Shown here: positions 9,460 through 10,671 of the stretch, in pieces | How positions within the stretch are numbered: position 1 is the first letter of the stretch | Layout of the letters: every line of letters begins with the position of its first letter | Origin: an uncultured Alphaproteobacteria bacterium | Lineage (GTDB): Bacteria; Pseudomonadota; Alphaproteobacteria; Rhizobiales; Hyphomicrobiaceae | Direction: 5' to 3' | Length of the DNA: 64,000 bases | Assembly: GCA_963759735.1 (NCBI GenBank) | Contig: CAVXAF010000002.1 | Span: forward strand, 58,255-122,254 | The notes under the pieces: model-generated | Told to the model about the DNA's origin: nothing | What the model saw: the letters and a program-made list of their open reading frames with translations, nothing else | Database searches by the model: none | Made by a program: the position numbers and the translations under genes

Positions 9460-9718
9460 GACCGTTCTGCCACCAAGCCGACAGCAAGCCGATGGCTACG
9501 AAGGTCAACAGGATGCCTTGCGCGGCCATGAAGTAGCCGAGCGGAAAAGCCAGCACATCAACGAGATTGAGCGCCTGCACGAAGCTCGGCACCCCAAATG
9601 CGAACAACGCCCAGGCCAGCAGCGCGAAGATGGGTAGCCGCCCGGATAGGCGCGCACCGTCAGATGCCTGTGAAACCTCGCGCACCACGCCCCCCGTCGT
9701 CTGCCGCGGTGTGCGCAC
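9431..9718 (-). CDS. DUF4212 small membrane subunit of the SSS transporter
   Basis: FPLGYFMAAQG signature; overlaps the start of the SSS gene. Confidence 0.85.
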   Translation of the reverse strand: MRTPRQTTGGVVREVSQASDGARLSGRLPIFALLAWALFAFGVPSFVQALNLVDVLAFPLGYFMAAQGILLTFVAIGLLSAWWQNGRAARNTKDR

Positions 9719-9804
9719 CGCTATGCCGCGAAGTTCGCCGCCGTTTGCGACGCCCTCATGGCGGGCGCCGATGCATCGACACTTGCTGCGGGCCGCGCGG
9801 CGCA

Positions 9805-9847
9805 GAAAGATAAAAGGCGGGGCGATACGTCCCCGTATCCCCCCGCC
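9805..9847 (-). terminator. Rho-independent terminator
   Basis: Stem GGCGGGG-C-GATACG / CGTATC-C-CCCCGCC (13 bp, one mismatch, 4-nt loop) followed on the minus strand by TTTTATCTTT. Confidence 0.75.
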
Positions 9848-9917
9848 CTTGGGATCCTCTCCCTAGACTTGGACCTTATTGTTTTTAGGGCCGACTGAGC
9901 AGTCCAAGACTCGCCGG
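9805..9917 (-). ncRNA. Candidate ~110-nt sRNA or attenuated leader with an alpha-r8/suhB-complementary motif
   Basis: Bounded by a promoter at 9924-9952 and a terminator; internal stem CTTGGAC/GTCCAAG; contains AAGTCTAGGGAGAGGA; TSS position is estimated. Confidence 0.5.
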
Positions 9918-9923
9918 CCCCGC

Positions 9924-9952
9924 ACCATGTGCGAGGGGCGAGTTGGCGTCAA
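9924..9952 (-). promoter_or_regulatory. Sigma70-type promoter
   Basis: Minus strand TTGACG (9952-9947), 17-nt spacer, CATGGT (9929-9924). Confidence 0.55.
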
Positions 9953-10026
9953 GCGCTCGCAAGTGGACAAAATTCTGATGCAGCGCAGCGATTTACGGGC
10001 GGCCGCAGCGTCGAGGCGCTAAGACC

Positions 10027-10671
10027 TCAGGATACTTCGGGGCGGCATTCGGAATCGGCCGGCAGGGGATCGCATTGGCGATTGCCGGTGCAGCTGCGCA
10101 TGGCCTGCTGCACGCTGCTCGAATAGAGCCCATCGATGGCGCCGAAATAGAGCCCCTGCGAGCGCAGCCCGCATTGATACATTTTCACGATGCGCGCCCC
10201 GCCCGTCTGCATCGCCAGTTCGTAATCTTCCAGCGCCGCCTTCGCCTCACCCAGCGACTGGCGAATATGGGCGCGCGTATCGAGGGCAAAGGGACTGCCG
10301 GGTGACAGCTGCAGCGCTTTCTCTACATCGGCGATGCCGTCGCGCGGGCGGCCGAGCTTGTAGTACGACCAGGCGCGGTTGTTCAGCGCCAGCGGAAAGT
10401 CGGGCGTAATGGTCAGCGCGGAATCATAGTCGGCCAGCGCCTTGTCGAACATGCCGAGCAGGGAATAGGCGAGCGCCCGGTTACCGTAGGCGAGGCTCTT
10501 TTGATCATCGGGCAGCCCCGGCGTATCGATGAGCGTCGAGCAACCGCTGATGCGCCGCTCGTTATCGTCGCTGAGGCAGTCGAGCGTCGGGTCATCGACG
10601 GTCGCCAGCGCAGCGGCCGCCCCGAAGGCGAGCGCTGCCAAGGTAGCGGCGATGGTCTTGGCGTAAGCCAT
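10027..10671 (-). CDS. Secreted tetratricopeptide repeat protein
   Basis: Signal peptide, TPRs (AYGNRALAY, ALNNRAWSYY, ALDTRAHI) and a C-terminal GLYFGAIDGLY segment. Confidence 0.85.
   Translation of the reverse strand: MAYAKTIAATLAALAFGAAAALATVDDPTLDCLSDDNERRISGCSTLIDTPGLPDDQKSLAYGNRALAYSLLGMFDKALADYDSALTITPDFPLALNNRAWSYYKLGRPRDGIADVEKALQLSPGSPFALDTRAHIRQSLGEAKAALEDYELAMQTGGARIVKMYQCGLRSQGLYFGAIDGLYSSSVQQAMRSCTGNRQCDPLPADSECRPEVS

Follow-up and report, generated by a model that had tools for sequence, protein, structure and literature searches.

The alpha-r8 small RNAs (sRNAs), also known as MmgR or SisA and catalogued in Rfam as suhB (RF00519), belong to the most widespread sRNA families of the Alphaproteobacteria and govern carbon storage and nutrient uptake. 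Only one antagonist of these RNAs has been known so far, CrfA of Caulobacter crescentus, which sponges the alphaR8 sRNAs SisA-D in carbon starvation (Vogt et al. 2025, PMC12559287). A further RNA, ar9 (RF02343; Smr9C/SmelC289/Sra32) of Sinorhizobium meliloti, is an expressed, experimentally detected and Hfq-bound sRNA for which no function was found in the literature. Here we describe an element on the minus strand (9952-9804) of a 64,000-nucleotide stretch of Hyphomicrobium DNA, hereafter the window, from a genome of 3.64 Mb and 64% GC. Judged by its pattern of conservation, the element is a real, conserved and previously undescribed sRNA gene, and the only sequence in it under strong constraint complements the alpha-r8 core. 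Because this invariant stretch matches the working end of alpha-r8 base for base, the element is probably a second, independently evolved alpha-r8 sponge besides CrfA. In the literature, neither an alpha-r8 sponge from the Rhizobiales nor a Hyphomicrobium sRNA of such a kind was found described.

The locus was singled out by an earlier reading of the DNA (the original prediction), which noted, correctly, that CrfA sponges alpha-r8 sRNAs in carbon starvation (PMC12559287), and which offered three interpretations: a CrfA-like sponge RNA, an sRNA-gated leader of the downstream symporter operon, or a divergent alpha-r8 copy on the plus strand. Both strands of the window were read, scanners for terminators and sigma-70 promoters were applied, and the neighbouring genes were typed with Pfam.

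Conservation of the element

By DNA search, the intergenic unit was recovered from 24/24 congeneric genomes (72-85% identity); conservation sets in just upstream of the -35 hexamer and stops at the terminator. A covariance model built from 25 aligned Hyphomicrobium sequences (R1) detected the element in all 39 Hyphomicrobium genomes (39/39) with scores of 74-135 bits (123 bits at the source locus), and as a single copy in 38 of them. Two copies are present in one genome only, G050, at C25:2204-2324 and C10:44606-44728 (135 and 118 bits), which may represent a mixed metagenome-assembled genome (MAG) or a true duplication. Carriers of the element include cultured strains such as Hyphomicrobium sulfonivorans S1 and Hyphomicrobium sp. 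NDB2Meth4 (L060, L064). The 17-mer GGTCCAAGTCTAGGGAG is identical in 25/25 Hyphomicrobium loci, and the motif AAGUCUAGGGA, on whose conservation in orthologous regions the original prediction had made its case depend, is invariant in all orthologous loci. The genus alignment contains a 5' hairpin with compensatory changes and a strongly conserved GC hairpin, separated in part by an A-rich stretch whose length varies through indels that are not multiples of three.

Outside the genus, R1 matched none of 292 genomes from the order's other families, but scored weaker matches (31-43 bits) in at least 7 Hyphomicrobiaceae genera besides Hyphomicrobium. These homologues keep CTTGAC[A/G]-N17-CAT[G/T]GT, the 5' hairpin, the A-rich run and CCAAGTCTAGGGA, and their GC hairpin is followed by a good T-tract; both hairpins, at the same positions, are nevertheless wholly different in sequence. 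Strong constraint across genera is limited to the promoter hexamers and the 13-mer CCAAGUCUAGGGA, which is kept across the homologues L192-L199 with one substitution, in L194. Selection has therefore preserved the architecture together with the promoter and a single-stranded core of 13 nt, the signature of a base-pairing sRNA.

Complementarity to the tandem alpha-r8 sRNAs

The 13-mer CCAAGUCUAGGGA is the exact complement of the core of both alpha-r8 sRNAs of the source genome. These are encoded by two tandem genes at C7:1089538-1089612 (63.5 bits) and C7:1089730-1089806 (73.5 bits), so that the partner with a complementary core called for by the original prediction is present in duplicate. The pair lies between genes for an inositol-monophosphatase (suhB-type) and an N-formylglutamate amidohydrolase (FGase), and this interval is the canonical alpha-r8 locus (PMC12559287). 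Element-bearing genomes all carry alpha-r8, with exactly two tandem copies in 37/39 Hyphomicrobium genomes, the two exceptions being highly fragmented assemblies, and with 2-3 tandem copies in 8/8 genomes tested from sister genera. The part of alpha-r8 that the element matches is its conserved single-stranded core, CUCCCUAGACUUGG; the complete 17-mer complements CUCCCUAGACUUGGGCC of both genes through 17 contiguous pairs, one of them G-U, and in several sister genera the complementarity runs on into the alpha-r8 terminator stem, as ACGG[U/C]CCAAGUCUAGGGA.

The match stands out against the rest of the genome. The 12-mer CTCCCTAGACTT has three occurrences in 3.64 Mb, namely the two alpha-r8 genes and the element locus, where base composition predicts ~0.26 (and ~0.03 for the shared 14-mer). 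Genome-wide, no other complement of the alpha-r8 single-stranded region was found with fewer than 4 mismatches in 17, except for a unit at C1:80647-80851 that is described below. An exact search of 185k species genomes with the 17-mer returned 119 loci, 75 of which are the antisense strand of ordinary alpha-r8 genes whose terminator begins GGACC; the 17-mer alone is therefore no marker of the element.

Cofolding of the predicted RNA with each alpha-r8 yielded ddG values of -17.0 and -19.6 kcal/mol, with all intramolecular hairpins kept and an intermolecular helix formed. When the 17-mer was shuffled (n=100), ddG was -7.1 +/- 3.0 kcal/mol, with a minimum of -15.2 kcal/mol. Whole-molecule RNAduplex had returned over-extended duplexes of -54 to -82 kcal/mol, being blind to intramolecular structure, and was dropped in favour of cofolding and the core shuffle.

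Organisation of the predicted transcription unit

The unit opens with the promoter-like element that the original prediction had placed on the minus strand and that is found there, at 9952-9924: TTGACG (9952-9947), a 17-nt spacer and a -10-like CATGGT (9929-9924). All 25 Hyphomicrobium loci of the alignment, like the homologues from other genera, retain CTTGAC[G/A]-N17(+/-1)-CAT[G/T][G/T]T; within the Hyphomicrobium alignment CTTGACGC is invariant and is followed by N17 and CAT[G/T]GT. From the positions of promoter and terminator, a primary transcript of ~107 nt (9811-9917, minus strand) is predicted, starting ~7 nt past the -10 hexamer and ending within the U-tract. We infer its transcription, ends, abundance and conditions of synthesis from sequence. 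Its minimum free energy (MFE) fold of -59.4 kcal/mol has a z of -4.7 against shuffles. Over the whole named structure 97.6% of alignment cells are paired, compared with 37-52% in slid controls, and two pairs of the first stem-loop have changed on both sides.

This 5' stem-loop, SL1 (9890-9918, minus strand), pairs GGCCGGC with GUCGGCC in the RNAalifold consensus; in the source genome its stem reaches 9921-9887 and its 17-nt loop holds GGACU (9905-9901). In SL1, 94% of cells are paired, and both-sided changes occur in 2/6 pairs (CG/UA; AU/GC/CG). The original prediction had instead drawn a stem of CTTGGAC (9908-9902) with GTCCAAG (9874-9868), followed on the 3' side by the core region TCTAGGGAGAGGATCCCAAGGG, or the string GGTCCAAGTCTAGGGAGAGGATCCCAAGGG; that stem exists, although the A-rich loop it encloses has 27 nt and is longer than had been quoted.

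ARN-like stretches mark, in enterobacterial models, RNAs that bind the distal face of Hfq. The single-stranded A-rich stretch AAAAACAAUAA (9876-9886, minus strand), which reads (A-A-N)4 when the next G is included, is a possible site of this ARN type, Hfq binding being a prediction. An A-rich stretch lies immediately 5' of the core in 34/34 homologues, with a mean A fraction of 0.44 in a 64% GC genome and a mean longest ARN run before the core of 2.9 triplets. It is followed by the anti-alpha-r8 site GGUCCAAGUCUAGGGAG (9859-9875, minus strand), in which the 13-mer occupies 9872-9860. With a predicted probability of being unpaired of 0.52, rising to 0.65 over its first 9 nt (CCAAGUCUA), the core should be more accessible than the RNA as a whole (0.41).

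A small hairpin (GGGA, loop GAGGA, UCCC; 9851-9863, minus strand) partly overlaps the 3' end of this site. With 96% of cells paired, its stem is kept and its loop is variable within the genus; the hairpin is not retained in the homologues of other genera. The unit closes with an intrinsic terminator (9804-9848, minus strand), called by the scanner as the original prediction had anticipated, in which the hairpin GGGCGGGGGGAUACG-GGGA-CGUAUCGCCCCGCC (9848-9816; 98.7% of cells paired) is followed by UUUU (9815-9812)-A-UCUUUCU. A GGACC/GGUCC pseudoknot is possible in 100% of the sequences, yet these bases are nearly invariant, and one compensatory case was seen, in L198 of another genus. A small open reading frame (ORF) driven by GGGAG was considered and rejected, because GGGAG is not followed by a start codon and homologues differ by indels whose lengths are not divisible by three.

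Comparison with CrfA, ar9 and alpha-r8

Like CrfA, the element is a predicted standalone sRNA, ~100-130 nt in length, whose G/A-rich site complements the conserved alpha-r8 core, here in silico; several alpha-r8 paralogues coexist with it, and its predicted effect would be the same, namely masking of the anti-Shine-Dalgarno (anti-SD) seed and de-repression of alpha-r8 targets. It also has, as far as complementarity can tell, the trait that characterises sponges as a class, being a putative independently made RNA in which one site complements a trans-acting sRNA's seed. QrrX of Vibrio offers a parallel of another kind, as a dedicated sRNA that antagonises sibling sRNAs through their shared seed (as cited in PMC12559287), in an unrelated sequence, another organism and another regulon.

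The resemblance to CrfA does not extend to homology, which is undetectable: RF01527 has no match at E <= 10 at the locus, its best score in the genome being 16.9 bits at C7:829712. Genomic context and promoter also differ, and the sponge function, shown for CrfA, is a prediction for the element. In CrfA homologues the site is a hairpin loop, GGGGAGGAAAC, the complement of GUUUCCUCCC, while CCAAGUCUAGGGAG of the element pairs with CUCCCUAGACUUGG, the 3' half of the seed and the base of the terminator; the two antagonists, one targeting GUUUCCUCCC and the other CUCCCUAGACUUGG, would thus overlap on CUCCC only. CrfA itself was found in 2/401 sampled alphaproteobacterial genomes, both of one genus. 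The sponge interpretation of the original prediction is favoured by the complementary partners and the invariant motif; the element is not a CrfA homologue.

A second comparison is with ar9, whose consensus contains CGCGGUcAAgUCuUGGGAgGAu, with GGGA in a hairpin loop; this stretch is complementary to the alpha-r8 core at 14/15 positions. The motif GGUC(N)AAGUCUUGGGAGGAU is visible in most of the fetched ar9 loci (L223-L251) and is perfectly complementary to the alpha-r8 core in some MAG members. Two loci that match RF02343, L108:1896-2062 (48.4 bits) and L127:6818-6986 (43.4 bits), carry the identical 17-mer. A core of GGUC(C)AAGUCU(A/U)GGGAG..GAUC appears to be common to ar9 and the element, whose counterpart of the ar9 motif is GGUCCAAGUCUAGGGAGAGGAUC, with a 2-nt insertion, and both combine a 5' hairpin with an A/U-rich linker and an intrinsic terminator.

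The differences are numerous. The element is ~107 nt long versus ~150-200 nt, lacks the central multi-hairpin domain of ar9 that is closed by a CGCG...CGCG helix, and has its terminator within ~10 nt of the core. The promoter hexamers differ, no synteny between ar9 loci and the element locus was found, and most ar9 members have U where the element has the A that gives a perfect alpha-r8 match. RF02343 has no match at E <= 10 at the locus (the whole-genome best, 19.5 bits, lies elsewhere), and R1 aligns with ar9 loci locally, at the core motif only, with 7-16 bits (22.4 bits in L144). On these grounds of model scores, domain, synteny and promoter the element is treated as a separate family, with a functional motif in common with ar9 and perhaps a distant kinship. 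Among the genomes sampled, ar9 occurs in 79/301 Rhizobiales genomes and 0/9 Hyphomicrobiaceae, and the element only in Hyphomicrobiaceae, so that their distributions in the sample are complementary. It may be that ar9 is the alpha-r8 sponge of rhizobia, although no paper saying so was found.

The relation to alpha-r8 itself is one of opposite strands. At the Rfam gathering thresholds (41 bits for suhB/alpha-r8, 38 bits for CrfA and 45 bits for ar9) the whole window gave no match. In a permissive search of 9600-10150 (551 nt), part of the covariance check of both strands that had been proposed for the locus, a plus-strand suhB match at 9835-9894 scored 19.6 bits (E = 0.13), beneath its cut-off and tenth in rank in the genome. 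P31 matches to the terminator palindrome in this search were rejected as hairpin noise. The plus strand, which reads CCCTTGGGATCCTCTCCCTAGACTTGG, carries the CUCCCUAGACUUGG core of alpha-r8, and CUCCCUAGACUU aligns perfectly to the model; the 23-nt terminator hairpin is shrunk to 7 nt in this alignment, and to 7-9 nt overall. The conserved signals of the element, in contrast, all point to transcription from the other strand; it is thus complementary to alpha-r8 and falls outside that family.

In two genera the opposite strand aligns weakly with the whole alpha-r8 model (19.6-21.3 bits), an A-rich run replacing the U-tract, and in sister genera the antisense alpha-r8 match reaches GAACGG[U/C]CC directly after the A-run. 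These alignments would fit an origin of the element in an alpha-r8 duplicate that became inverted and was deprived of half its terminator, at scores that are too low for proof.

Proposed mode of action and alternative explanations

We propose the following mechanism. A standalone gene with its own promoter and intrinsic terminator would yield a ~107-nt non-coding RNA, composed of a 5' hairpin, an ARN-like A-rich stretch, a largely exposed GGUCCAAGUCUAGGGAG and a terminator hairpin. GGUCCAAGUCUAGGGAG would pair with the single-stranded core CUCCCUAGACUUGG of both tandem alpha-r8 sRNAs, covering half of the anti-Shine-Dalgarno seed in each sRNA as well as the beginning of the terminator stem. 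The RNA would thereby sequester alpha-r8, and perhaps destabilise it, and messages repressed by alpha-r8 would then be released, as with CrfA in Caulobacter. We infer the dependence on Hfq, the direction of regulation and the inducing signal. That the element acts as a CrfA-like sponge or antagonist of alpha-r8 is the interpretation we hold to be likely, with considerable reserve. If it is correct, the Hyphomicrobiaceae possess a second, unrelated antagonist, alpha-r8 sponging has evolved repeatedly and is a general design feature, and the element offers a clean case of the origin of a sponge gene, possibly from an sRNA duplicate read on the opposite strand.

Several observations weigh against this proposal. 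The sigma-70 scanner called no promoter at 9952-9924, because CATGGT, a weak sigma-70 -10 element, matches TATAAT at three positions only; the case for a promoter is made by the invariance of the hexamers and their fixed spacing among homologues, and not by a match to consensus. The U-tract is poor in several Hyphomicrobium species. The anti-alpha-r8 site can in part be sequestered internally, through the GGGA/UCCC and GGACC/GGUCC pairings. The alpha-r8 core is invariant, so the two RNAs offer no covariation by which their pairing could be proved, and the sequence is compatible with regulation in either direction. Finally, some of the complementarity might be inherited, as a relic, from an inverted copy of alpha-r8.

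This last point leads to a different explanation, in which the element is a trans-acting sRNA related to ar9, with mRNAs, other anti-SD sRNAs or a protein as its main partners, and the alpha-r8 match is a by-product of shared ancestry. The resemblance of the core to the conserved ar9 motif GUC(N)AAGUCUUGGGAGGAU, the absence of an ar9 function from the literature consulted and the likeness of the opposite strand to a decayed alpha-r8 all speak for it. A relic, however, would not have stayed nearly unchanged while its surroundings changed, the core of the element has the very A that perfects the alpha-r8 match, this match extends into GGYCC, and the genome has no further site complementary to the core beyond chance; we therefore regard an ar9-related RNA with other partners as rather improbable, if still worth serious thought. 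Far less credit can be given to a plus-strand gene, be it a divergent or decayed alpha-r8 or an untranscribed relic. Its weak suhB matches do span the whole model (19.6-21.3 bits) with the terminator hairpin deleted, but these scores are far under the 41-bit cut-off, and the single-stranded 10-mer that defines alpha-r8, UUUCCUCCCU, reads AUCCUCUCCCU here and varies in its 5' half among the homologues (AUCUUC, AUAGUC, GCUAUC), only CUCCCU being kept. No hairpin precedes the plus-strand T-rich run, so there is no Rho-independent terminator on that strand, whereas the conserved -35/-10 hexamers and the hairpin followed by a T-tract all belong to the minus strand; strict conservation, at one copy per genome across the 39/39 genomes, likewise argues against a relic. 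The plus-strand option of the original prediction is accordingly rejected as very improbable.

The remaining explanation regards the element as the 5' leader or attenuator of the downstream DUF4212-SSS symporter operon, with a conditional terminator that alpha-r8 pairing might open. The co-orientation of the element 90-170 nt upstream of DUF4212-SSS in all Hyphomicrobium loci and in L194 and L195 invites this idea, and some read-through into the operon is conceivable in Hyphomicrobium, where the U-tract is often weak. The adjacency does not hold more widely: conservation upstream of DUF4212, proposed as a check, fails in L192, L193 and L196, where a convergent MFS-type transporter gene lies downstream, in L197 and L198, where an HpcH-type aldolase gene intervenes, and in L199, where glpD follows. 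A convergent downstream gene in three genera argues for a standalone sRNA gene and against an obligate DUF4212-SSS leader, and an obligate attenuator of the symporter operon is ruled out by these arrangements. Further, no conserved alternative anti-terminator pairing was found, the conserved alpha-r8 pairing ends short of the terminator stem, and a separate conserved block before DUF4212 suggests that the operon has a control region of its own. An sRNA-gated leader, as the original prediction had envisaged it, is thus disfavoured and in our judgement quite unlikely, and a sponge fused to a transporter leader finds no support as a general feature.

Genomic neighbourhood

The gene nearest downstream encodes the DUF4212 small subunit (Pfam PF13937; 9431-9718, minus strand) and lies outside the RNA; it is followed by the gene for the SSS (SSF, sodium:solute) symporter (PF00474; 7504-9459, minus strand). 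Pfam typing thereby bears out the adjacency reported in the original prediction, whose distance of ~87 nt is revised to ~93 nt between the U-tract and the first possible DUF4212 start (9718). Upstream and co-oriented with the element is a TPR protein gene (10728-10027, minus strand), with coaBC, divergent, beyond it; tblastn and ORF maps revealed that the locus beside coaBC is syntenic across the family. Because the TPR gene is missing in L034 and L035, the RNA cannot be merely the 3' untranslated region (3' UTR) of that gene.

Between the terminator and the DUF4212 start, nearly all Hyphomicrobium loci contain the conserved block TGCCA[C/T]GAGG[C/G][C/T]GTCGCAAA (at ~9750-9772, minus strand), which is probably a promoter or operator of the DUF4212-SSS operon. 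Its spacing does not suit sigma-54; on inspection by eye, wrong spacing also led to the rejection of a sigma-54 site in the TGCCACGAGG..TCGCA block.

Upstream box and a possible link to PhaR/AniA

Upstream of the promoter, conservation in the genus alignment is highest in the box AAATCGCTGCGCTGCATCAGAA (9973-9994, minus strand). It contains the palindrome TGCGCTGCA at 9987-9979 (minus strand), centred ~68 nt upstream of the predicted transcription start, which reads TGCANTGCA in most of Hyphomicrobium. TGCGCTGCA fits the PhaR/AniA core YGCRNYGCR, and the box scores 19/21 against the full motif, the motif having been defined in S. meliloti and applied here to Hyphomicrobium (PMC12542648). In S. 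meliloti, PhaR represses mmgR (PMC12542648), and a phaR gene is present in the source genome at C7:277587-277766. Similar palindromes lie ~45 nt upstream of alpha-r8-1 (TGCGACGCA, C7:1089679-1089687) and ~70 nt upstream of the Rhizobiaceae ar9 genes L225-L229 (TGCAGTGCA). The conserved TGCNNNGCA box is thus a candidate transcription-factor site that hints at PhaR/AniA control; the naming of this factor stays a lead only, because the 9-nt YGCRNYGCR core has 4568 sites in the GC-rich source genome.

Taken together with ar9, these boxes allow a broader and distinctly speculative proposal, which we think has a minor though real chance of being right: that the element and ar9 (Smr9C) are the missing antagonist arm of the alpha-r8/MmgR circuit across the Rhizobiales, sponges either derived from the antisense of that core or convergent upon it, and wired to the PhaR/AniA carbon-storage sensor of alpha-r8 through the TGCNNNGCA boxes of the element, alpha-r8-1 and Rhizobiaceae ar9. 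Were this so, alphaproteobacterial carbon control would include the pairing of sRNA and sponge as an ancestral, order-wide feature rather than as a speciality of Caulobacter, and ar9/Smr9C, without a function since 2007-2012, would gain a directly testable role.

Further RNAs with a complement of the alpha-r8 core

The source genome (G000) contains a second unit with the 13-mer CCAAGTCTAGGGA, at C1:80647-80851 (L256:448-652, plus strand), of ~205 nt and with a fold z of -5.2. It comprises gTGACA-N17-TAAACG, a 5' end of ATAAGGG, the hairpin GCCGUGAAAACAGACGGC and GUCU-AGGGA-AGAU, in which GGGA lies within the loop; a long central domain then leads to the terminator GAGCAAGGUUCGAUGGACCUUGCUC and its U-rich tail. 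This architecture is like that of ar9, yet Rfam does not detect it.

Non-alpha-r8 RNAs with the exact 17-mer GGTCCAAGTCTAGGGAG are also found in L088 and L144 (Xanthobacteraceae MAGs), L072 and L135 (an Aestuariivirgaceae MAG). They end ~130-170 nt further on with a GCA(A/G)GGC...GCC(C/T)TGC hairpin and T-tract, L144 also keeps a GGGAG-loop-AUCCC hairpin, and they may be intermediates between ar9 and the Hyphomicrobium element. In the ar9-like genes of L127 and L145, two further partial repeats of the GGTCCAA type (GGCGGTCCAAATCTGC and GCGGTCCAAGCCGC) lie upstream of the perfect 17-mer site, an arrangement that could constitute a multi-site decoy.

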